Below are positions 1,163-40,492 of a DNA stretch of 64,000 nucleotides, in pieces; position 1 is the stretch's first letter, and the number at the start of each line of letters is the position of its first letter. Source of the DNA: Gaiellales bacterium (GTDB lineage Bacteria; Actinomycetota; Thermoleophilia; BMS3ABIN01); NCBI GenBank assembly GCA_003599855.1, contig QZKG01000047.1, positions 1,037-65,036 on the forward strand, given 5' to 3'. The notes under the pieces are model-generated. The model saw only the letters and a program-made list of their open reading frames with translations. It made no database searches and had not been told where the DNA came from. A program made the translations under genes and the position numbers.

Positions 1163-2632
1163 TCAGGCGCTGCGCATCCCCCTCAGCAGCCACCAGTCCA
1201 GGGGCAGACCCCAGTAGTGATAGCGGCAGCGGGCCGAGCTGAGAGCGCTGGCGACGTTCACGTAGAGCTTCCTGGCCGTGCTGCGCGCCGCCCGCCTCCT
1301 GACCCATTCCGAGGGATAGCCGTAGACCAGGTAGAACTCCCGCTGCTTCTGCCGGTTGCGGAACCTGTCATCCATCCAGGGCAGGTCGCCGCTCACGGTG
1401 GAGAACTGCGCCCATTCCTCCAGGGACCCGGGACTGTTCAGACCGAGCTCCACCGCCCGGTCGAAGAGCGCGTTGCCCGGGGTCGGAGCGTAGAAATGCA
1501 GCTGCGAGTTGTACTCGCCCACCACCTGCGACACCCTCTCCATCACGTCCCACGTCTCCTCGATCTCGGAATCGGTCTCGCCGGGGAAGCCGACGATGAA
1601 ACTGTAGGAGATCTTGATGCCGTGCCTGGTGGCCACCCGCGCCGCCTCGACGATGTCCTCGGGGGTGATGTCCTTCTGCATCGTCCCCAGCTGGCTCTCC
1701 GACCCGCTCTCGGCCCCCACCAGGAAGGCCCAGAGGCCGCTGGCCTTGAGCACGTCGAAGGTGTCGTCGGCGAACTTGCCCAGCTGCGGCGCGCGCGCGT
1801 TGGCGGCCCAGCCGAACTTCATCCCCCGCTCTACCATCTTCTGGGAGATCTCCCGCGCCCGGCGCTCGTTGACGAAGTAGGTCGAGTCGAAGTACATGAT
1901 GCCGTTGACCCCCAACAGGCTCTCGAGGAACTCGAGGTCCGAGAGGACCCGGTCCGGCGTGTAGGCCTTCCAGCGGCGGCGGTAGACCAGCGGCTCGGCG
2001 CAGAACTGGCAGCGCGCCGGGCAGCCCTGGCTGGAGACGTAATTGATCACCCGGCTGCCCACGTGCATGTTGTTGAGGTAGCGCTCCGGGCGCTCGATCC
2101 TGTCGTAAGGCAAACGGGGAAAGGTGTTGATATCAGCGACGCGGCGGTCGGGATTCGAAACCGTCTCGCCATCGCGGGTGAAGGTGATGCCCTCGATGTC
2201 GGTGAAGTCCTCGCCCTGGCTCAGCCGGTTGACCAGCTCCAGGAGCGTCAGCTCCCCCTGCCCGCGGACCACGGCGTCGACGTACTGGTTGCGGCTGGTC
2301 TGCTCCGGGAGGATGGAAGGGTGGTAGCCGCCCCAGATTATGGGCAGATCGAGACCGGCCCCGCGGACCGCGGCGGCGGCTTCCAGGGCGAAGTGGATCT
2401 GGGGCCCGGTCATGCAGCTGATGCCCAGAACCAGGGCGTCGCGGCACTCGTCCACCACCCGCCGTTCCCAGTCCGGCTCGACGTTGGCGTCGATCATGAC
2501 CACGTCATAGCCCTCAGCGAACAGCGGCGCCGAGACCGCCAGGGTCGGCAGGGGGACCCAGGTCCAGGGGTGGTAACTCTTCTTGAAATGGTTGCGCGGG
2601 TAGAGCAGCACTACCCTGTTCTTTTTATTCAA
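1163..2632 (-). CDS. Cobalamin-binding radical SAM protein
   Basis: N-terminal B12-binding region (GISCMTG, WGGYHPS, GQGE) and CxxxCxxC motif GCPARCQFC. Start moved from 2869 to TTG 2632 (after GGGGAA) to avoid a long overlap with the upstream gene. Confidence 0.88.
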   Translation of the reverse strand: MNKKNRVVLLYPRNHFKKSYHPWTWVPLPTLAVSAPLFAEGYDVVMIDANVEPDWERRVVDECRDALVLGISCMTGPQIHFALEAAAAVRGAGLDLPIIWGGYHPSILPEQTSRNQYVDAVVRGQGELTLLELVNRLSQGEDFTDIEGITFTRDGETVSNPDRRVADINTFPRLPYDRIERPERYLNNMHVGSRVINYVSSQGCPARCQFCAEPLVYRRRWKAYTPDRVLSDLEFLESLLGVNGIMYFDSTYFVNERRAREISQKMVERGMKFGWAANARAPQLGKFADDTFDVLKASGLWAFLVGAESGSESQLGTMQKDITPEDIVEAARVATRHGIKISYSFIVGFPGETDSEIEETWDVMERVSQVVGEYNSQLHFYAPTPGNALFDRAVELGLNSPGSLEEWAQFSTVSGDLPWMDDRFRNRQKQREFYLVYGYPSEWVRRRAARSTARKLYVNVASALSSARCRYHYWGLPLDWWLLRGMRSA

Positions 2633-31583: not shown

Positions 31584-34046
31584 CTACATAGAGGCCCCAG
31601 GCAGTTCGTCGAAGGAGTTGTAGTAGGTCGTCCTCTGGCTAACGACCAGCGGCTGTCCTTCGACGCTGCTCTTGACCTGGACCGGGCCGTTCATCTGGCC
31701 CGGGAAAGTCGGCGTTACCCGCCCGCCGGCCGGGACGTTATAGCGCCCCACCAGCTGGTTGCCGATCTTTATATCTACCACGGCTTCCTCCTGGCTCTGG
31801 TTGCCCACCAGAATCCAGGTCTTCATGCCGGTGGAGGCGTTGTCGTACCACGCGAACCACTGGTCGCAGTTGAGCTCGGCCGGCGTGACCCCGGGGACTT
31901 CCTCGAAGGAGCCGCGGAATACCGAGCGCTCGCTCACCATGAGCGGCTGTCCATTGCTGGACACGACCCGCACCGGGCCGTTCATCAGATTCGGGAAGTT
32001 GGGCGTGACCCTGCCGCCGGCCGGGACGTTATAGAAGCCTGCCAGCTGCCCGCCGATATAGACGCCTACCTGGGCGGTCTGGGTACCCTGATTGCCGATA
32101 ACGACCCAGGTCTTCATGCCGGCGCTCTGCTGGTCGTACCATGTGAAGTGATACTCGGTCCCGAGCTCTGCCGCCGTACGGCTCCTGACCTCATTGAAGG
32201 TGCCGTTATAGGTGACCCGCTCGCTGACCGTGAGCGGCTGGCCATTGCTGCTGACCACGCGCACCGGACCGTCCATCACGCCATGGTATTGAGGCGCGAC
32301 GCTGCCGCCGGCAGGCACCGAGTAGTGCCCGACGTTGCGACCGGCGATGAACACATCGACCTCAGCGGTGCGGCTGCCCTGATTGCCCACCATCAGCCAG
32401 GTGTTCATGCCCTGGCTCACCTGGTCATACCAGGACAGGTAATGTTCCGTACCGAGATCGGCCTGGGGTGTGGCCGGCAGTTCCGAGAACGAACCGTTCA
32501 TGGTCACCCTTTCACTCACCAGCAGCTCGCGTCCCGCAAGAGAGACCACCTTCACCGGGCCTTTGGCGACACCGGCATACCTGGGGGTCACCCGCTCGTG
32601 AGCGGCTACATGATAGCTTCCCATGAACGACCCGCCGATATAGACTTCCACGTCCTGCCCCGTTTCGGTCGGATTGCCGATCACGAGCCAGGTCCTCATG
32701 CCCGGGGATGCGTTGTCATACCAGCCGAAGAAATAGTTCTTCTCGTGGCTGTTATCCACGGTCACTTCCACAGATCGGGTGCTCGTGTTGCCGGTAGCGT
32801 CGTAGGCCTTTGCGGTCACAGAGTAAGAACCATCAGCCAGAGAGCGGGTATAGATATGCGAGCCATAGGGCGCCGAAGTCTTTGTATCGATCAGCCTGTC
32901 GCCGACGTACAGCTCCACCTTGCTGATGCCGCTGCCATCAGAAGCCGAGATCTCGACGGCAACCGTGCCAGAAAGAGTCGCACCCGGTGACGGTGAATCG
33001 ACAGATACCACCGGCGGCTCCGAGTCCGGCAGGCTCACAGCCTGCCGGAATGCATCCAGGCTCTGCTGGGAACTGTTGATACGCCAGTCCGTTTCCTTGT
33101 TGATGTGGAACCAGGTCACCATCTCCATCTTCGGGAATCTGGAGGGGATGATGCTGAAAGCGTCGGTTATCCAGCGGGCCTTGCCGCCGTTCTGGGCATT
33201 GCCTCCGATCTCAGTGGAGGCCGTCTCGCTGACTACGATCGGCTTGCCGGTACGCTGTACCGCTACGTCGTAGCTGTACTTGAAGACTTCTTCGAAGCTC
33301 TGCCACGACGAGGTCCAGGTTGGCGTGTTGTACATGGTCCCCCAGTTGTACCCGTTGATACCTACGTAGTCCACGTAGCTGTCGCCCGGGTAGTAGGTAT
33401 CGAAGATGCTGTTGGCATCGGCGTAGGAACCGGCGCGGTTAGGCGACCAGATGAACTTGACATTGTCGGCGCCTTCCTGCCGGAAGATGTCGTGGATATG
33501 CCGCCACGCCGGTATATAGTCGGCTGGCGAGTTGCCGTTGGCGGTGCCGCCCCAGGCGACCCAGTCACCGTTCATCTCACACATGGGCCGGAAATAGATC
33601 GTATAGCCGAAATCCCTCAATTCACGCGCCCAGCGGCGGATCTGAGTGTCGTGGTTGCCTGCGGTAATAGTATTAAGCCGGTATTCAGGCTGGTTGTTGG
33701 GATCCTTGGCGAAGTTATGCGGTTCCCAGGAAAGCTGGATGATGCGCCCCTCTTCAGCATACGGCCTGAATGTGTCGGCATAGAATGATTCACTGATCGA
33801 TTCGTACCAGAGAAACACGTCGATCTGACGGCCGACCGTGGACTCGAACTGGTGGATATCATCGATCGTCGGCAACTGCTCGTCGGGAAACTCCGGGTCG
33901 GGGAAGAACACGCCGACCTTGAGTTGTGACGGCTCGACTGCGACGGCGTTTCCCGCGGGGATCGTAACGAAGATCGTCAGAGATATGAGCGCCGCAGCAA
34001 TCAAGACAACGGCGGAGATGCTGGCTGTGATGCGAGCCCTTGACAT
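31584..34046 (-). CDS. Secreted GH26 glycoside hydrolase with Ig-like (Big) domain and four C-terminal ~96-aa repeats
   Basis: Signal peptide; SWEP, FRPMCEMNGDW, WSPN, YYPGDSYVDYVGINGYN, KPIVVSET; PPVVSVDSPSPG..DG.Y..TAKAYD..GN. Confidence 0.88.
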   Translation of the reverse strand: MSRARITASISAVVLIAAALISLTIFVTIPAGNAVAVEPSQLKVGVFFPDPEFPDEQLPTIDDIHQFESTVGRQIDVFLWYESISESFYADTFRPYAEEGRIIQLSWEPHNFAKDPNNQPEYRLNTITAGNHDTQIRRWARELRDFGYTIYFRPMCEMNGDWVAWGGTANGNSPADYIPAWRHIHDIFRQEGADNVKFIWSPNRAGSYADANSIFDTYYPGDSYVDYVGINGYNWGTMYNTPTWTSSWQSFEEVFKYSYDVAVQRTGKPIVVSETASTEIGGNAQNGGKARWITDAFSIIPSRFPKMEMVTWFHINKETDWRINSSQQSLDAFRQAVSLPDSEPPVVSVDSPSPGATLSGTVAVEISASDGSGISKVELYVGDRLIDTKTSAPYGSHIYTRSLADGSYSVTAKAYDATGNTSTRSVEVTVDNSHEKNYFFGWYDNASPGMRTWLVIGNPTETGQDVEVYIGGSFMGSYHVAAHERVTPRYAGVAKGPVKVVSLAGRELLVSERVTMNGSFSELPATPQADLGTEHYLSWYDQVSQGMNTWLMVGNQGSRTAEVDVFIAGRNVGHYSVPAGGSVAPQYHGVMDGPVRVVSSNGQPLTVSERVTYNGTFNEVRSRTAAELGTEYHFTWYDQQSAGMKTWVVIGNQGTQTAQVGVYIGGQLAGFYNVPAGGRVTPNFPNLMNGPVRVVSSNGQPLMVSERSVFRGSFEEVPGVTPAELNCDQWFAWYDNASTGMKTWILVGNQSQEEAVVDIKIGNQLVGRYNVPAGGRVTPTFPGQMNGPVQVKSSVEGQPLVVSQRTTYYNSFDELPGASM
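31590..32745 (-). repeat. Four tandem protein repeats (Y.F.WYD..S.GM.TW..IGNQ..V.V.IGG...G.Y.VPAGGRVTP....GPV.V.S.NGQPL.VSER....SF.E.P)
   Basis: Directly visible in the translation of 31584-34046. Confidence 0.9.
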
Positions 34047-34239: not shown

Positions 34240-34454
34240 ACGAAAAAAGGTTTAATAACGTGTCGCCCGCGCCGCAGGTTGTTATTTTCCCCGGCCGGCC
34301 GATATCAAGTTTAAGCGGACCTCCCATATGGAATATTGAATTACGGCGACTGTTATGCCACTATGTTAATGGCAGACCGATACGCAGACGCTTCCGCGAA
34401 AGCGGCTTTTAGGGTATTCCATGAGTGGGGAGGCGAAAGCGGAGGTCGGCCAAA

Positions 34455-36008
34455 TTGAAACAAGTTAAGACACTGACTATTTTCGGGACCAGGCCTGAGG
34501 TGATCAAGCTTGCTCCCGTTATTTTTCAGCTCGACGCTTCTCCTCATTTCGATTCCGTCCTCGTCTCCACTGGCCAGCACCGGGAGATGCTGCAGCAAGC
34601 GATGGCCCAGTTCGGCATCGAGCCTGATTTCAACCTGGATATCATGAAGCCAGGCCAGGCGCTGAGCGATATCACCGTCGAATCCCTGCGGGGCACCGAG
34701 CAACTGATAGCTGAAGAGGAGCCGGATCTCGTCATTGTGCAGGGTGATACGACCACCGCCTTCGCCGGTTGTCTGGCTGCTTTTTACCAGCAGAAGTCCG
34801 TAGCCCATGTCGAGGCCGGGCTCCGGACATACGACAAGTACCGTCCGTTCCCCGAGGAGATCAACCGTTCGATGATCACCCAGCTGGCGGACCTCAACTT
34901 CGTCCCGACGCTCACCGCCTGGGACAGCCTCCGCCGGGAGGGTATATCCGATGACAGGATATTCATCACCGGCAACACGGTGATCGACGCGCTGTACTAT
35001 ATGGTGAAGCCGCAGTACTCCTTCATCAACGAAACCCTGCGCACAGTTGACATGGACAAGCGGGTTGTGGTGGTCACTTCACACCGTCGCGAGAACTTCG
35101 GTGAGCCGATCAGGGAGATCTGTGCCGGCGTCGCTGAGCTGGCACAGCGGTTCGAGGATATTGAGATAGTCTTCACGGTCCACCGCAACCCCAAAGTGCG
35201 GATGCCGGTTGAAAGCATGCTGGGCGGTTTTCCGCGAGTCCATCTGGTCGACCCGCTCGACTACCCCGACATGGTAAACCTGCTGTCTCGTTGCTACATG
35301 GTCCTTACCGACTCTGGGGGGCTTCAGGAGGAGGCCCCGGCGCTCGCCAAGCCAGTCCTGGTGCTGCGGGACGTCACCGAGCGCCCTGAAGCCGTCCAGG
35401 TGGGAATGGCGCGGGTCATCGGCACCTCCAGCAGAGCCGTGGTCGCGTCGGCTTCCGAGCTGCTGGACGACAGGGCGGCATACGAATCTATGGCGAGGGG
35501 CATCAGCCCCTACGGCGACGGCAAGGCGGCCGAGCGCATCATCGGAGCTATCGAGTATTCAAACGGCATAAGGGCGGATATGCCCGAGCCGTTCGTGAGC
35601 TGGCCGGCGCTGCCGGTAACGGGTGACCCGGCCGTAATCGAGCATCCCGCCAGTGACGAACTGTTCTACCGACAGCTGGACGAAAGGATCGCCAGGGCCA
35701 GGAAACAGAGGCGAAAGGTCTCGGTCGCTACTTTCGATCTGACCAGGACAGACAATCTCCAGTTCAACCAGGCAGTCAAAGCGATCACGCACAGCCTGCG
35801 TGAATCGGACACCGCAGCGGCCCTCGAGGGAAGACGCCTGGTGCTGGTCCTTCCAGGCGCGGGCGAAGAGCAGGCCCAGCGCGCTGCAGACAGGCTGCTC
35901 GAACAGCTGTCCGAGCCGCTCCACGGGCTCGAGGATGCCCTTAGCGTCGACATCAAGACGTACGAGAACGACGAACGGGAAGTCGACAGCACGGCGGCGA
36001 TCGGATGA
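34455..36008 (+). CDS. wecB: UDP-N-acetylglucosamine 2-epimerase fused to a C-terminal degenerate GGDEF domain with RxxD I-site
   Basis: FGTRPEVIK, TGQHREM, VQGDT, HVEAGLRT, PFPEE.NR, TDSGGLQEE, TERPE, PYGDG; about 140 extra aa containing LRESD-TAAAL-EGRRL. TTG 34455 follows GGAGG (alternative start GTG 34425). Confidence 0.9.
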   Translation: MKQVKTLTIFGTRPEVIKLAPVIFQLDASPHFDSVLVSTGQHREMLQQAMAQFGIEPDFNLDIMKPGQALSDITVESLRGTEQLIAEEEPDLVIVQGDTTTAFAGCLAAFYQQKSVAHVEAGLRTYDKYRPFPEEINRSMITQLADLNFVPTLTAWDSLRREGISDDRIFITGNTVIDALYYMVKPQYSFINETLRTVDMDKRVVVVTSHRRENFGEPIREICAGVAELAQRFEDIEIVFTVHRNPKVRMPVESMLGGFPRVHLVDPLDYPDMVNLLSRCYMVLTDSGGLQEEAPALAKPVLVLRDVTERPEAVQVGMARVIGTSSRAVVASASELLDDRAAYESMARGISPYGDGKAAERIIGAIEYSNGIRADMPEPFVSWPALPVTGDPAVIEHPASDELFYRQLDERIARARKQRRKVSVATFDLTRTDNLQFNQAVKAITHSLRESDTAAALEGRRLVLVLPGAGEEQAQRAADRLLEQLSEPLHGLEDALSVDIKTYENDEREVDSTAAIG

Positions 36009-36047
36009 GCGGCAGCGTGTATATAAACTGAAGGGAAGCGGGAATAT

Positions 36048-36075
36048 TAAGTTAAGACGTTGGACTGGCCGAAAC
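36048..36075 (+). promoter_or_regulatory. Sigma-28-type promoter upstream of the LPXTG micropeptide and synthase genes
   Basis: TAAG-N16-GCCGAAAC, 33 nt upstream of the ATG at 36109. Confidence 0.55.
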
Positions 36076-36108
36076 AATCTGAGTAATGGATACGAGGAGG
36101 TGTAAGAG

Positions 36109-36228
36109 ATGTACGGAGCATTACTTCCGGTTACCGGAATCGCGATAGGCCTCTACCTCGTAGTGGCGATTATAGTAGTGATAGTCGGCTCGCTGATGAA
36201 GCTTAGGGGAGGGCGCGAGAAGAGCTGA
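36109..36228 (+). CDS. 39-aa micropeptide consisting of an LPXTG sorting signal
   Basis: Not in the ORF track. GAGGAGG RBS; MYGAL-LPVTG-IAIGLYLVVAIIVVIVGSLM-KLRGGREKS. Confidence 0.75.
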   Translation: MYGALLPVTGIAIGLYLVVAIIVVIVGSLMKLRGGREKS

Positions 36229-36270
36229 TCCAGCGCTGTCTGTATCAACGCAAGCCCCATTTTCGGAATA

Positions 36271-39174
36271 TTGACGGACACACTCAAACAAAAGGATGAA
36301 AAGGGACTTGCCAGGCGGAACGCGTTTCTTTTAGCGGCAGGGGACGAGCAGTCGGGCAACGGCAACCTGTGGAACAAGGCGGCATTCAGTCTTGTCCTGC
36401 TGTCATTTCTCCTCATTTTTCTCACTGGCGGGCTCAGAGCCTCGGCACAGGATATCGACGAAACAGGTGTCCTGCAACCGGCGGTTCCGGAATCAGCCAG
36501 AGACGAACCGGCTCCCAAAGTCCTGATTGTGCATGATCAGGATTACGATGACGAGTTAGCATCACAACTCGCGGCACTCCTGGGGCATTTCACCATTGAC
36601 ACTGCCATCGTCGAGGAAGCCTTCTATCAGAACGGCTGGGTCGAGAGATTCGACGCGACCTTCTTCATAGGCGGCACCCACAGGGACATCAATCCCGCTT
36701 TCCTCGATGATGCTTTCGGCACGGACAGGACGATCGTCTGGCTGGGGCGCGGCATCGATCAGCTCGATGCCCGGCACCCGCTTTCGTCAAGGTACGGGTT
36801 CGCGTACGGACGCGTGGATGCCTCGGGTGAGTTCACTGACGTCAGTTACAAGGATGTCGCGCTACAGAAGACGGATCCGGTCACGGCCATCTCTTATGTG
36901 ACTGACGAGAACAAGGCCCGCGTAATGGCCTGGCTGGAAGGTCCGGACCAGCCTGAGCCATACGTGATCCGGAGCGGCAACTTCTGGGTTTTCGCGGATA
37001 TCCCCATGATCCAGGCTGGCGACAGTTCTGCCTACCTGGTGCTGGCGGACCTGCTGCACGACGCTCTGGAAAGACCTCATGCTGAAGAACACCGGGCGAT
37101 GGTCCGCATCGAGGACGTCCACCCCAACATAGAGACAGCATACTTCAACCAGCTGGTGAGCTACCTCTACAACCATGAGATCCCTTTTGCTGTCGCGCTG
37201 ATCCCAGTTTACGTGAACCCCGATACCGGTGAGGAAATCCATCTCTCCGACCGGCCTGATTTCGTCAAGGCAATCAGGGAAGCCGAACGCAAGGGTGGTG
37301 TCGTCGTTCTCCACGGTTATACGCACCAGCTTTACGGCATGACCGGGGTGGACCACGAGTTCTGGGACAACCGCGTGGGGGCTTTCCCGGAAAACGAGAC
37401 AGTCGAATCCATCAGGGACAAGGTGGAGTCGGGACTGAGGGAGGTCCGGGCGGCCGGCATCGACCCCGTCATCTGGGAGACGCCGCACTATAACGCTTCC
37501 GGTCTCGTTCACAAGGTGGTGGCCCAGTACTTCTCTGTGGCCTGGGAGAGAAGGGACGCGCCGTTCTTCCCTTATGTAGTCACCTACCCTGATACCGGCC
37601 AGACGCTTCTGCCAGAGACGCTGGGCTACATCCGCGGTGAGGAACACCCAGCAGCGGACCTCCTGAAAGTCGCCGACAAGCAGCGGGTCGTACGGGACGG
37701 ATTCGCCTCGTTCTTCTTCCACCTGCACATCAAGGAATCGCAGATGCGCGAGATGATCGACGGCCTGGAAGACAGAGGCTACGTGTTCGCCCCGCCGGCG
37801 GAGGTCGCTGGACTGCCATATACACCTCCGGAACCTCCCTCCTGGCTGAGCAAGTTCGCCAGCGGAGTTTCGGAGCACGTGGGGGCTTTCATCCCGCAGG
37901 GACTGAAGCAGATGAGTTCGGCAACAGTGCTGACACTGCTGGCCATCTTCATCATTTTTTACTATTGGGGCATCTTCTTACTCAGCCGCAAGCCGCCCTC
38001 TTACAAGGGTGAATATGACCCGGACCTGCTGTTCGTCGTCGTCGTCCCGGCGCTGAACGAAGAGCTTGTGATCGGGAAGACGCTCGACCACCTGCTCTCG
38101 TTGAAGGATGACAACCTCCTGATCCTGGTGGTCAATGACGACTCGGACGACGATACCAGGGACATCGTACTGGGCTACCCGCAGGACAGGGTGAAACTGA
38201 TCGACCATCCCCGGGCTCTGTCGCGCCAGGGGAAAGGGCGCGTCCTGAATTATGCTTTCCGTTATCTGATGGCGAGCGACATCGTCAAACAGAAAGGCAC
38301 CAGCAAGGTCATCTACGGAGTTCTTGATGCGGACGGCCGTGTGGAGAAGAACCTGGTCTCCGAAATCAACCCCTATTTCGCCGACCCCCGGTCAGGCGCT
38401 GTGCAGGTGGGGGTGCGGATCTCGAACGCCAACACCAACATCCTTACCAAATGGCAGAACTTCGAATTCCTTGCTTTCGCCCGCCTGGCCCAAAAGGCTC
38501 GCGAGCACCTAGGCAGCGTCGGCCTGGGAGGCAACGGGCAGTTCGTGCGCCTTTCGGCCCTTGCCAGCCTGGGCTCGGAGCCCTGGACTGACTGCCTGAC
38601 CGAAGACCTTGACCTGGGCATACGGCTGATGCTCAAGGGCTGGCAGAACCATTACTGCTCCAATACCTTTGTCGCCCAGCAGGGTGTCCCGACGATGAAG
38701 GCTCTTATCCGCCAGCGTACCCGCTGGTTCCAGGGGCATCTCACCTGCTGGCGGCACATACCTGCGCTCTCCTACCGGCACAAGGAGCCGTCAGCGCGTA
38801 TCGATACCATCTATTACCTGCTGGCACCCCTGATGGTATTCGTCTTCCTGCCCAGCTCTTTGCTGTTCATCATGTGGTCGGTGTACTTCATCGCCACCGG
38901 GGCATCCTCACTGACGTTCTCGCCTCTTGACTACATCCCGGCGATACTGATCTGGTATCTGTTCTCTTTCGGCGCCGTGCCAACGGTGGTCTGGACCTTC
39001 TGGCGTGAGGAGAAGGACATGTCGGGCTGGAAGGCTTTCCTCTGGGCCCACATCTTCTCTTTTTTCTACATATTCTGGTTCCTGGCTGGAATCAAGGCCG
39101 TCATCCGGCTGGCGCGCGGCGAAGGTTCCTGGGTCAAGACCGGGAGGGTCCGGGAAGTCCATCAGCATCCCTGA
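36271..39174 (+). CDS. Fusion of DUF2334 polysaccharide deacetylase (YdaL-like) and processive GT2 synthase (YdaM-like)
   Basis: N-terminal TM/signal; VRIEDVHP, LHGYTHQ, WETPHY; TM; then DDDSDD, GKGRVLN, DADG, TEDLDLG, QRTRW (QxxRW), C-terminal TMs and WVKT. Confidence 0.88.
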   Translation: MTDTLKQKDEKGLARRNAFLLAAGDEQSGNGNLWNKAAFSLVLLSFLLIFLTGGLRASAQDIDETGVLQPAVPESARDEPAPKVLIVHDQDYDDELASQLAALLGHFTIDTAIVEEAFYQNGWVERFDATFFIGGTHRDINPAFLDDAFGTDRTIVWLGRGIDQLDARHPLSSRYGFAYGRVDASGEFTDVSYKDVALQKTDPVTAISYVTDENKARVMAWLEGPDQPEPYVIRSGNFWVFADIPMIQAGDSSAYLVLADLLHDALERPHAEEHRAMVRIEDVHPNIETAYFNQLVSYLYNHEIPFAVALIPVYVNPDTGEEIHLSDRPDFVKAIREAERKGGVVVLHGYTHQLYGMTGVDHEFWDNRVGAFPENETVESIRDKVESGLREVRAAGIDPVIWETPHYNASGLVHKVVAQYFSVAWERRDAPFFPYVVTYPDTGQTLLPETLGYIRGEEHPAADLLKVADKQRVVRDGFASFFFHLHIKESQMREMIDGLEDRGYVFAPPAEVAGLPYTPPEPPSWLSKFASGVSEHVGAFIPQGLKQMSSATVLTLLAIFIIFYYWGIFLLSRKPPSYKGEYDPDLLFVVVVPALNEELVIGKTLDHLLSLKDDNLLILVVNDDSDDDTRDIVLGYPQDRVKLIDHPRALSRQGKGRVLNYAFRYLMASDIVKQKGTSKVIYGVLDADGRVEKNLVSEINPYFADPRSGAVQVGVRISNANTNILTKWQNFEFLAFARLAQKAREHLGSVGLGGNGQFVRLSALASLGSEPWTDCLTEDLDLGIRLMLKGWQNHYCSNTFVAQQGVPTMKALIRQRTRWFQGHLTCWRHIPALSYRHKEPSARIDTIYYLLAPLMVFVFLPSSLLFIMWSVYFIATGASSLTFSPLDYIPAILIWYLFSFGAVPTVVWTFWREEKDMSGWKAFLWAHIFSFFYIFWFLAGIKAVIRLARGEGSWVKTGRVREVHQHP

Positions 39175-39427
39175 TTGCTGGCGGGCCTGTAGCTTCCCTG
39201 CCGACCAGAGCGTTTAAAAAACCAAGGTTCGCGGAATACACTCTTTGACGCTGAAAATACGGTTTTTGCACGACTTTTTTTGCAAGGCGCCGATAGAAAC
39301 AGGCGGGCGCTTTTTTATTGGGAGCAAGTTGGTTTTGTTTGTGGTACAATGGCCGCTTGGTATTTGCCGGAAACGGGCAAAAAAGGATTAGTAAACGACA
39401 ACGAGAAAGATAATACACGTGACATCA

Positions 39428-40492
39428 ATGACAGAACTACCGAATGAATTGACACAGAATCTGATCACACAAGGACAGGAAAAGGGCTTCCTGACGCTGA
39501 ACGATATCGCTGATGCTCTGCAGGAGCAAGAGCTCAACACGGAACAGATCGAAGAGGTCTACTCCCGCATCACGGATACCGGGATCGAGATCCTTGAGAG
39601 CGAGGACGAAGAACCCGCCGTCGAGGAAAGCAGCGCAAGCGAAGAAGGCCCGCTGGAGAGACCAGCCTCAACCGATGACTCCTTGCGCATGTACCTGCGC
39701 GACATCGGTCGAATCCCGTTACTCTCGGCCGCTGAAGAAGTTTCGCTCGCGAAGCGCATGGAGCGTGGCGACATGGAGGCCAAGAGCAGGCTTGTGGAAG
39801 CCAACTTGCGGCTGGTGGTCAGCATCGCCAAGCGCTACCTCGGACGTGGCCTGTCTTTCCTGGATTTGATACAGGAAGGCAACCTTGGCCTGATACGGGC
39901 GGTGGAGAAGTTCGATTACCGCCGTGGCTACAAGTTCTCCACTTACGCCACCTGGTGGATCAGGCAGGCCGTGACGCGCGCGATCGCTGACCAGGCGCGT
40001 ACGATCCGCATCCCAGTGCATATGGTCGAAAAACTCAACCACCTGGTGCGCGCCAAGCGCCAGTTGCTGCAGGATCTCGGTCGCGAACCCACGCCAGAGG
40101 AGATAGCAAAGGCCATGGATACCACGGTTGAGAAGGTACAGCACCTGATAAAGATATCTCAGAGCCCCGTGAGCCTGGAGAAACCCGTCGGCGACGAGGA
40201 AGAGGCTGAGTTGGGCGATTTTCTCGAAGACGAGGGCACGCCGAAACCGCTCGACGCTGCCATGTCAGAGATCAAGAAAGATGACCTTAACAAGGTGCTC
40301 GACTCGCTGCCGCACCGGGAACGCAAGATACTGGAGTTGCGTTACGGGCTTGCTGGTGAACACCCTCGTACGCTGGAACAGATCGGCCGGCGATTTGGAG
40401 TGACCCGGGAACGCATCCGCCAGATCGAGGCCAACACGTTGGCGCGGCTGAAAGAGCTGCAGGAGACGCAGCACCTGCGCGAAAGCGCCTGA
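39428..40492 (+). CDS. RpoD/SigA-type RNA polymerase sigma-70 factor
   Basis: Region 1.1-like N-terminus, [65 protein letters not shown]. Confidence 0.93.

Follow-up and report, generated by a model that had tools for sequence, protein, structure and literature searches.

The window analysed here, a stretch of 64,000 nucleotides (nt) from contig QZKG01000047.1 of a Gaiellales bacterium, contains a 39-codon open reading frame (ORF) directly upstream of the gene for a DUF2334-GT2 fusion protein, a putative exopolysaccharide synthase. The product of the small ORF, MYGALLPVTGIAIGLYLVVAIIVVIVGSLMKLRGGREKS (P0001), consists of little else than a sortase sorting signal. This raises the question whether the ORF is a gene at all and, if so, what role a sorting signal with hardly any protein attached to it could play beside a polysaccharide synthase. 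Comparison across genomes indicates a genuine and selected gene. Its product may represent a single-pass membrane micro-subunit of an exopolysaccharide machine, in which the LPVTG motif would serve as a working sortase signal that is recognised and probably cleaved. We prefer this explanation tentatively, regarding it as quite possible and still short of probable.

Structure and translation signals of the 39-codon gene

The ORF extends on the plus strand from an ATG at position 36109 to a stop codon at 36226-36228. Its translation reveals five residues ahead of LPVTG, a hydrophobic stretch of 20 residues and a basic tail, and lacks a signal peptide, exactly as described in the original prediction. 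The feature had been placed at 36094..36228; the length (39 amino acids, aa) holds, whereas the start has to be corrected since 36094 is the first position of the ribosome-binding site. The latter (GAGGAGG) is indeed strong. The ORF of the synthase starts with a TTG at 36271, 42 nt past the stop codon of the small ORF, which confirms the direct upstream position of the peptide gene; the Shine-Dalgarno sequence of this TTG is weak in comparison with the strong site of the small ORF. A promoter of its own, which had also been suggested, found no support, as a sigma-70 consensus scan of positions 35700-36500, a method which does not reach non-consensus actinobacterial promoters, detected no promoter-like sites; terminator-like sites were likewise absent from this region in the same scan. 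The sequencing runs covering positions 35000-38000 comprise one DNA set from an activated-sludge metagenome and no listed RNA set, and are uninformative on expression. A search of a protein atlas with P0001 gave no usable match.

Conservation of the small ORF and selection acting on it

A loose pattern consisting of L[PA]x[TSA]G, a hydrophobic run and a basic tail was matched by 18 frames in the six-frame translation of the 2.35-Mb genome, including five other small frames of 33-86 aa. The motif pattern by itself is weak evidence, and it is conservation that settles the reality of the gene. The search for synthase orthologues in 40 relatives and the window's own genome yielded 15 loci, 14 of them with upstream sequence, and a near-identical small ORF was detected just upstream of the DUF2334-GT2 fusion in ten of these 14, a conservation which the original prediction had left to be established. 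The ten family peptides have M1, Y2, L5, L6, P7, V8, T9, G10, A12, G14, Y16, A20, G27, S28 and L29 in common, so that LPVTG is kept in every copy; G3 is kept in nine. A profile of the peptides gave strong matches (E <= 1e-15; 12 copies) in 11 of the 24 genomes of the taxonomic family, which are kin and not independent samples. Elsewhere in the class (377 further genomes) nothing convincing was detected, the seven weak matches (E 1e-3 to 1e-2) being located in frames of 96-461 aa. The peptide also occurs at six loci of named records, which are metagenome-assembled genomes (MAGs) labelled as Thermoleophilia or Actinomycetes bacterium. Based on identical peptides these are probably the same genomes as some of those in our collection (G handles), and hence not independent of them.

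The codon comparison of 11 copies over 32 codons revealed proportions of synonymous differences (pS) of 0.30-0.97 and of non-synonymous differences (pN) of 0.00-0.31, with pS exceeding pN in all 55 pairs; between G023 and G008, for example, pS is 0.69 and pN 0.01. The silent sites are near saturation and the protein is barely altered. A purine-rich Shine-Dalgarno sequence is located 6-9 nt before the start codon (ATG in 13 cases, GTG in two) of all 15 small genes inspected. Taken together, the conservation with the synthase, the ubiquitous Shine-Dalgarno sequence and the consistent excess of silent differences indicate that the small ORF is a translated gene under strong purifying selection, in agreement with the original prediction.

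It could be argued that the ORF arose by chance or is what remains of the 3' end of a degraded gene for a surface protein, since the loose pattern is present in five other small frames of the genome and the sequence is similar to a sorting signal carried by one of the surface proteins of the host. However, its own start codon and Shine-Dalgarno sequence are conserved in 11 family genomes and in other lineages, and pS lies far above pN. A non-gene is therefore extremely improbable, and we consider this explanation effectively refuted and excluded for practical purposes.

Constrained residues and the sortase-type motif

The alignment of module-verified sequences comprised nine proteins, namely six family copies and the small proteins of genome G403 and of the metagenome contigs L162 and L163. 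Only L6, P7, T9, G10, A12, G14, A20 and G27 are invariant among these sequences from three lineages, the x of LPxTG being V or F, while the N-tails cannot be aligned and the C-tails are basic but variable. Thus, half of the invariant set belongs to the sortase motif and the other half consists of small residues of the helix. An internal control is provided by a chance ALPVTGD in the cytoplasmic epimerase of the same gene cluster, the five orthologues of which read TPTTG, EMVTG, EMVTG, TPVTG and APVTG. None of the five keeps LPVTG, which indicates that LPxTG is not retained where no reason for it exists.

The original prediction had suggested Tyr2 as a possible glycan acceptor. This residue is invariant in the ten family copies, but the G403 protein starts with MPVY and the L162 protein with MSGV, and the sequences thus make a universal acceptor role of Tyr2 unlikely. 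The MY start recurs in P0136 and in small proteins of G731 and G553.

Relatives outside the family and their gene neighbourhoods

When 1.84 billion representative proteins were searched with a profile, 13 matches were obtained at E <= 1e-3, ten of which are small proteins of 40-78 aa. In eight of these ten an N-tail of 16-46 residues (rich in Gly and Ala in several) leads into LP[AFVS]TG, and xAxGx[YF], a helix and finally a basic tail follow, whereas P0125 and P0126 belong to the MYG type of P0001. Among the relatives compared with sortase substrates, the Gly- and Ala-rich N-tails of 15-30 residues mostly lack a basic n-region.

Gene contexts were obtained for relatives of two of the database small proteins. 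The longer relatives (about 62-67 aa) are encoded directly before unfused DUF2334 genes in G403, which belongs to another class and is the sole genome of that class in the collection, and on L162 and L163. On L162 the gene for a 62-aa LPFTG protein ends 6 nt before the DUF2334 gene, within which the contig ends. On L163 a small LPFTG protein gene ends 7 nt before a DUF2334 gene of 549 aa, which is followed by the genes for an epimerase and an orthologous GT2 protein, the latter sharing 44% identity with the GT2 half of the synthase in the window. The genes in G403 are arranged on one strand in the order GT2 (43% identical to the GT2 half), epimerase, 67-aa LPVTG protein and DUF2334. The small protein is a fixed part of the module in three separate lineages and gene orders, and what adjoins it in every case is DUF2334, encoded separately or as a fusion domain, and not GT2 as such.

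A wider profile matched in 36 genomes of a 401-genome sample of the phylum, a tally which takes in four unpublished genomes on which no specific claim rests. Only two of the small frames among these matches lie outside the window, one of them being that of G403, and the remaining matches are located in frames of 106-1095 aa; three of the latter were opened and turned out to be C-terminal sorting signals of ordinary secreted proteins. DUF2334 was detected in 23 of the 401 genomes. Scanning the 25 loci revealed the small ORF only at the window's locus and in G403, and the other full-length DUF2334 matches that were opened (G411, G453, G575) have different architectures.

In a GT2 tree of 14 rows the peptide accompanies the synthase in both peptide-bearing outgroups and in both deep clades of the family. 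The peptide therefore appears to be ancestral on this tree, the deepest joins of which are unsure owing to the long outgroup branches. The synthases without a peptide comprise a nested paralogue clade (G022 and G023b, beside a NadE-like gene) and the orthologue in G009, which is sister to the peptide-bearing G008.

Several further small proteins were observed in the course of these searches. The genome G011 encodes a paralogue of 66 aa (MYGAMLPITG..., with an acidic and Trp-rich C-terminal extension) at about 8311-8418 of L058 on the minus strand (G011:C23:83310-83417), which is located away from synthases. It adjoins genes for an ArsR-type regulator, as read from the translation, and a thioredoxin-like/FAD-oxidoreductase; the sequence of P0126 is identical to it. 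Proteins of 50 aa abut membrane GT2 synthases in G731 (MYEGVGSAAAGTAAAGAV-LPFTG...; L136 3453-3605, minus strand) and in G553 (MYQTIGAPAAAGIGA-LAYTGSD...; L170 1501-1653, plus strand). These two genomes belong to two other families of the phylum and their GT2 proteins are not orthologous to the window's synthase. Small L[PA]xTG proteins may be a wider companion of GT2 synthases in the Actinomycetota.

Sortases and sorting signals of the host

Two sortase genes (PF04203) were located in the genome, and LPxTG is invariant in all module-linked copies. Together with the conservation of the ORF and the selection on it, this means that none of the findings which the original prediction named as refuting it was obtained. 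Both sortases fit best to class E with 111 and 116 bits, below the 160-bit cut-off. Their catalytic domains fall in the regions G000:C13:41135-41500 and C5:15886-16248. Sortase genes are also present in all 24 family genomes as well as in G403, G731 and G553. Since every family genome is positive and the copy number does not track the peptide, sortase presence or absence was dropped as a discriminator. The sortase ORF on L001 (G000:C13:39635-43000; 1468-2178, minus strand) is flanked on one side by the gene for a glycosyl-phosphotransferase that primes exopolysaccharide synthesis (TIGR03025, E 3e-130) and on the other by that for a Cps4B-like phosphatase, so that one of the two sortase genes sits inside a separate polysaccharide gene cluster.

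The host encodes ten clear LPXTG proteins of 157-373 aa, in which the X position is occupied by N, E, A, S or D and no residue separates the G from the hydrophobic segment. The arrangement of motif, helix and basic tail in the peptide matches that of these ten proteins. Two of the host proteins were used as controls: in one of them LPSTGIAIALL[IV]GSG... and most of the helix are kept in 13 of 13 orthologues (from 14 loci), and in the other X varies among orthologues (E, A, S, N, V), one copy (L088) reading LPVTG. Judging from these comparisons, the peptide (LPVTGIAIGLY..., compared with LPSTGIAIALL...) appears to be written in the local sorting-signal style. Helix conservation, considered as an argument against a sorting signal, was dropped because true sorting signals are equally conserved in the family (13 of 13). 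In G553, which carries the LAYTG small protein beside a GT2 gene, a signal of the IAQTG type was observed in at least one other protein. Further host signals in G553, G731 and G403 were too few, and a covariation between the motif of the small protein and that of the host sortase is suggestive only.

Tiny proteins centred on a sortase motif are not new as a kind, being represented by the family NF058583 and by the TAFTG proteins of G678 and G667. P0001 itself matches NF058583 with 15.2 bits (E 0.013), failing the 65-bit cut-off, and eight of the ten small proteins match it weakly over motif and helix (10-17 bits, E 0.004-0.45). True members above this cut-off were not found in the 401 phylum genomes. 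The relative P0129 passes TIGR01167 with 17.1 bits compared with a cut-off of 15.9. The TAFTG proteins (L175 1363-1620 and L171 1309-1638, both plus strand) have 85-109 aa; a normal signal peptide and some 25 further residues lead up to TAFTG, and a helix with a basic tail completes them. They match NF058583 weakly, and their neighbours resemble Tad-type secretion genes by eye.

Proposed role and alternative explanations

We infer the topology of the peptide, its engagement by sortase and the effect of cleavage as follows. The peptide presumably inserts N-out/C-in without a signal peptide, and according to the positive-inside rule its uncharged five-residue tail would be located outside and its basic tail inside. 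YidC is able to translocate N-tails that are short and carry no charge, the Pf3 coat protein being an example. The peptide would belong specifically to, and be expressed together with, an exopolysaccharide machine of the YdaL/YdaM type that presumably consists of an extracellular DUF2334 deacetylase-like domain, a GT2 processive synthase, a UDP-N-acetylglucosamine (UDP-GlcNAc) 2-epimerase and a GH26-like hydrolase. LPVTG would be positioned at the outer boundary of the membrane within reach of sortase, as in the surface proteins of the host. A housekeeping class-E-like sortase may bind it there and probably cut between T and G, within MYGALLPVTGIAIG. This cleavage could link the assembly of the wall to the polymer machine or to the polymer made by it.

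Several observations weigh against such a sortase-dependent role. The peptide has neither a signal peptide nor a passenger domain, only MYGAL standing ahead of the motif, and to our knowledge every characterised sortase substrate has a Sec signal peptide. P0001 gives no match to TIGR01167 or PF00746 even at E<=10. The stretch before LPxTG is not conserved between the lineages and the would-be wall-linked product amounts to only nine residues. The invariance of LPxTG among the database relatives is partly circular, as the profile used to find them contains LPxTG, and A12, G14, A20 and G27 suggest helix-helix packing, which would fit an uncleaved subunit equally. Co-occurrence with sortase cannot discriminate because all 24 family genomes encode one. 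Furthermore, a paralogous synthase clade exists without the peptide, and the peptide profile detected no copy in G009 (97% complete) or G022 (85% complete). The orthologue in G009 implies that the synthase can exist without the peptide.

The peptide might instead be a permanent, uncleaved single-helix subunit of the synthase or deacetylase, comparable to IcaD, PgaD, MatA or the anchor of BcsB, which would stabilise or activate GT2 or tether DUF2334 and whose LPxTG would be a helix cap or an unprocessed relic. We take this to be a serious but somewhat doubtful possibility. It agrees with the lack of a signal peptide, with the helix residues A12, G14, A20 and G27 being invariant across lineages, and with a gene position immediately upstream of, in some genomes overlapping with, the synthase or DUF2334 gene; a similarly placed Streptomyces gene, matA, precedes the deacetylase-GT2 fusion gene matB and is suggested to be IcaD-like (PMC5972031). 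However, it offers no reason for the invariance of precisely L, P, T and G around a freely varying x in a small protein whose remainder has diverged too far to be aligned, and a cell with sortases could hardly protect an LPXTG that lies open beside the membrane from being cut. Homology to IcaD, PgaD or BcsB was not detected either (no Pfam match at E<=0.01, noise only at E<=10), and the synthase orthologue of G009 again does without the peptide. The predicted complex of the GT2 half (residues 500-967) with the peptide reached ipSAE values of 0.02 and 0.01, which carry no weight either way. A sortase signal and a helper helix are compatible with each other in one peptide. Concerning the two mechanisms of the original prediction, a wall-anchored primer or tether and a single-helix synthase subunit, the data do not separate them, as both the motif and the helix pattern are conserved. 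The more specific suggestion that the peptide stands in for BcsB/YdaN is disfavoured by the lack of Pfam homology and by a conserved neighbour which is DUF2334 rather than GT2 as such; a dedicated search of the genome for YdaN/BcsB was not part of the analysis.

Translation of the small ORF might also merely tune synthase expression, either via translational coupling or as a MifM-like leader sensing membrane insertion. The strong Shine-Dalgarno sequence on the small ORF and the weak one on the synthase TTG would be consistent with such an upstream regulatory ORF, as would the fact that the small ORF ends 6-42 nt before the next gene, or overlaps with it, in several genomes. Strong purifying selection along the whole helix, a variable C-tail where an arrest motif would be expected and the 66-aa paralogue in G011 away from any synthase speak against it, which renders this scenario very unlikely.

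As an extension of the proposed sortase-dependent role, the peptide might serve as a covalent adaptor. The polymer would be joined to the outside tail, through Tyr2 in the family or through the N-terminus, and sortase would transfer the peptide-polysaccharide conjugate onto peptidoglycan; in a variant, a free sugar amine of the partly deacetylated polymer would resolve the acyl-intermediate of the sortase. Even with both variants taken together this seems unlikely. The sortase gene within a separate polysaccharide cluster fits such a link loosely. If true, it would represent a sortase-dependent anchoring of exopolysaccharide to the wall which is independent of LCP enzymes.

Sortase substrates are usually seen as secreted proteins with a passenger domain, and synthase-dependent exopolysaccharide systems are regarded as depending on small membrane helpers which differ between lineages and mostly have no clear role. 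One gene of 39 residues unites both features, namely a sorting signal without passenger or signal peptide as a long-kept part of a YdaL/YdaM-type machine in environmental Actinomycetota. If sortase acts on the peptide, the latter would provide a direct molecular link between the anchoring of wall proteins and the production of a matrix polymer and would be among the smallest natural sortase clients. If it does not, the peptide would clearly illustrate how a synthase can acquire a subunit from a sorting signal. Gene callers overlook functionally linked micro-genes of this kind beside polysaccharide synthases.

The exopolysaccharide gene cluster

The peptide gene is part of a gene cluster (Table 1) in which the GH26-like gene on the minus strand is followed by the genes for the epimerase, the peptide, the DUF2334-GT2 fusion and an rpoD-like sigma factor. 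This order recurs in the named loci. The epimerase gene is syntenic in five of the six named MAG loci, the exception L057 keeping peptide and synthase, and the GH26-like gene is syntenic in L052, L054, L056 and L057. The sigma factor gene follows the synthase gene in the window and in four of the six loci (L052, L053, L054, L056); another gene takes its place in L057, and the L055 contig ends just past the peptide gene.

Table 1. Coordinates of the 39-codon gene, its parts and the neighbouring genes in the window
Feature	Position	Strand	Basis
Shine-Dalgarno sequence GAGGAGG, 8 nt 5' of the ATG	36094..36100	+	read from sequence
39-codon gene (P0001), stop codon included	36109..36228	+	ORF call and translation
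N-tail MYGAL, uncharged, predicted outside	36109..36123	+	topology inferred from positive-inside rule
LPVTG pentapeptide, sortase-type motif, residues 6-10	36124..36138	+	translation
Hydrophobic transmembrane segment IAIGLYLVVAIIVVIVGSLM, 20 residues	36139..36198	+	translation
Basic C-tail KLRGGREKS (4 basic, 1 acidic), predicted cytoplasmic	36199..36225	+	translation
Fusion of DUF2334 (YdaL-like, deacetylase-like) and GT2 (YdaM-like, processive synthase), 967 aa, N-terminal signal/anchor	36271..39174	+	DUF2334 E 8e-47, GT2 E 2e-28
UDP-GlcNAc 2-epimerase with C-terminal degenerate GGDEF-like domain	34425..36008	+	GGDEF PF00990 E 3e-5, 24.3 bits vs cut-off 23.8
Divergent gene for a glycoside hydrolase of 820 aa, GH26-like, with Ig-like domains	31584..34046	-	domain scan
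rpoD-like sigma factor, regions 1.1-4	39419..40492	+	domain scan

The DUF2334 relatives carry the JGI name 'YdaL'. The GT2 half contains the QRTRW and TED motifs of processive synthases and is only distantly related to proteins of solved structure, the top match being the cellulose synthase BcsA (E 1e-6). The combination of a GH26-like hydrolase and a 2-epimerase hints at a beta-linked polymer of the N-acetylmannosamine (ManNAc) or mannose type rather than poly-N-acetylglucosamine (PNAG). The GGDEF-like domain on the epimerase may be a receptor of cyclic di-GMP (c-di-GMP) in the role of YdaK.

The library gene model of the synthase (P0005, 881 aa) begins 86 residues past the TTG and would lose the conserved N-terminal signal/anchor. 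In L054 and L056 the synthase ORF overlaps with the end of the peptide ORF; none of the ten DUF2334 loci examined encodes the peptide as an N-terminal part of the synthase. The synthase orthologue of G012 (L014, G012:C40:4529-7170) is broken by one in-frame TAA, and the peptide gene there is intact.

Comparison with known systems

In comparison with the canonical sorting signal (TIGR01167/PF00746), the peptide has LPXTG, a hydrophobic segment and a basic tail in the order and spacing found in the host. However, the signal makes up the whole protein, lacking a Sec signal peptide, a passenger domain and a hidden Markov model (HMM) score. The family NF058583 ('LAXTG_small_WW', LAXTG motif-containing small protein) resembles the peptide as a curated family of tiny proteins around a sortase-type motif, but the peptide and its relatives lie far below the 65-bit cut-off.

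IcaD of Staphylococcus and PgaD of E. coli have two helices and no known sortase motif. Like the peptide, they are small membrane proteins encoded inside a GT2-synthase/deacetylase operon; they share no sequence similarity with it, and the partner of the peptide is DUF2334 and not the CE4 protein PgaB or IcaB. IcaD and PgaD are non-homologous membrane proteins needed for full glycosyltransferase activity of the PNAG synthases IcaA and PgaC (PMC7112194). In Streptomyces, MatB combines an extracellular deacetylase, a transmembrane helix and an intracellular GT2 domain, and the upstream gene matA, whose product has no recognised domain, is proposed to aid polymerisation (PMC5972031). The gene layout of this PNAG system is the same as that of the peptide and the DUF2334-GT2 fusion. 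However, MatB uses CE4 instead of DUF2334, and the likeness of MatA to the peptide is one of layout, no LPXTG being reported for MatA in the part of the source available.

The exopolysaccharide operon ydaJKLMN of B. subtilis encodes a hydrolase, a c-di-GMP receptor and YdaLMN, which are required for the polymer (PMC13274460). Its parts correspond to those found here, YdaJ to the GH26-like protein, YdaK to the degenerate GGDEF-like domain of the epimerase, YdaL to DUF2334 and YdaM to GT2. In the window, by contrast, YdaL and YdaM are fused, and the epimerase gene and the LPVTG micro-gene are additional. In the literature on Yda, MatAB, IcaD/PgaD, GspA, the C-peptide and small LAXTG proteins we found no gene consisting of a sorting signal only and tied to a polysaccharide synthase, though one could still be published.

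The nearest precedent for a coupling of glycan and sortase is likewise actinobacterial, namely the GspA/LcpA/SrtA pathway of Actinomyces oris, which attaches a glycan to a protein anchored by sortase (PMC6381275). GspA, however, is a normal secreted protein which is glycosylated by an LCP enzyme, and neither a GT2 synthase nor a micro-peptide is involved. In Streptococcus gordonii a histidine kinase senses the C-peptide, the part of a substrate which stays behind in the membrane once sortase has cut it (as summarised in PMC11326707). This implies that the helix of a sorting signal can have a function of its own. This remnant derives from large adhesins and has no dedicated gene, whereas the peptide described here is encoded by its own gene.

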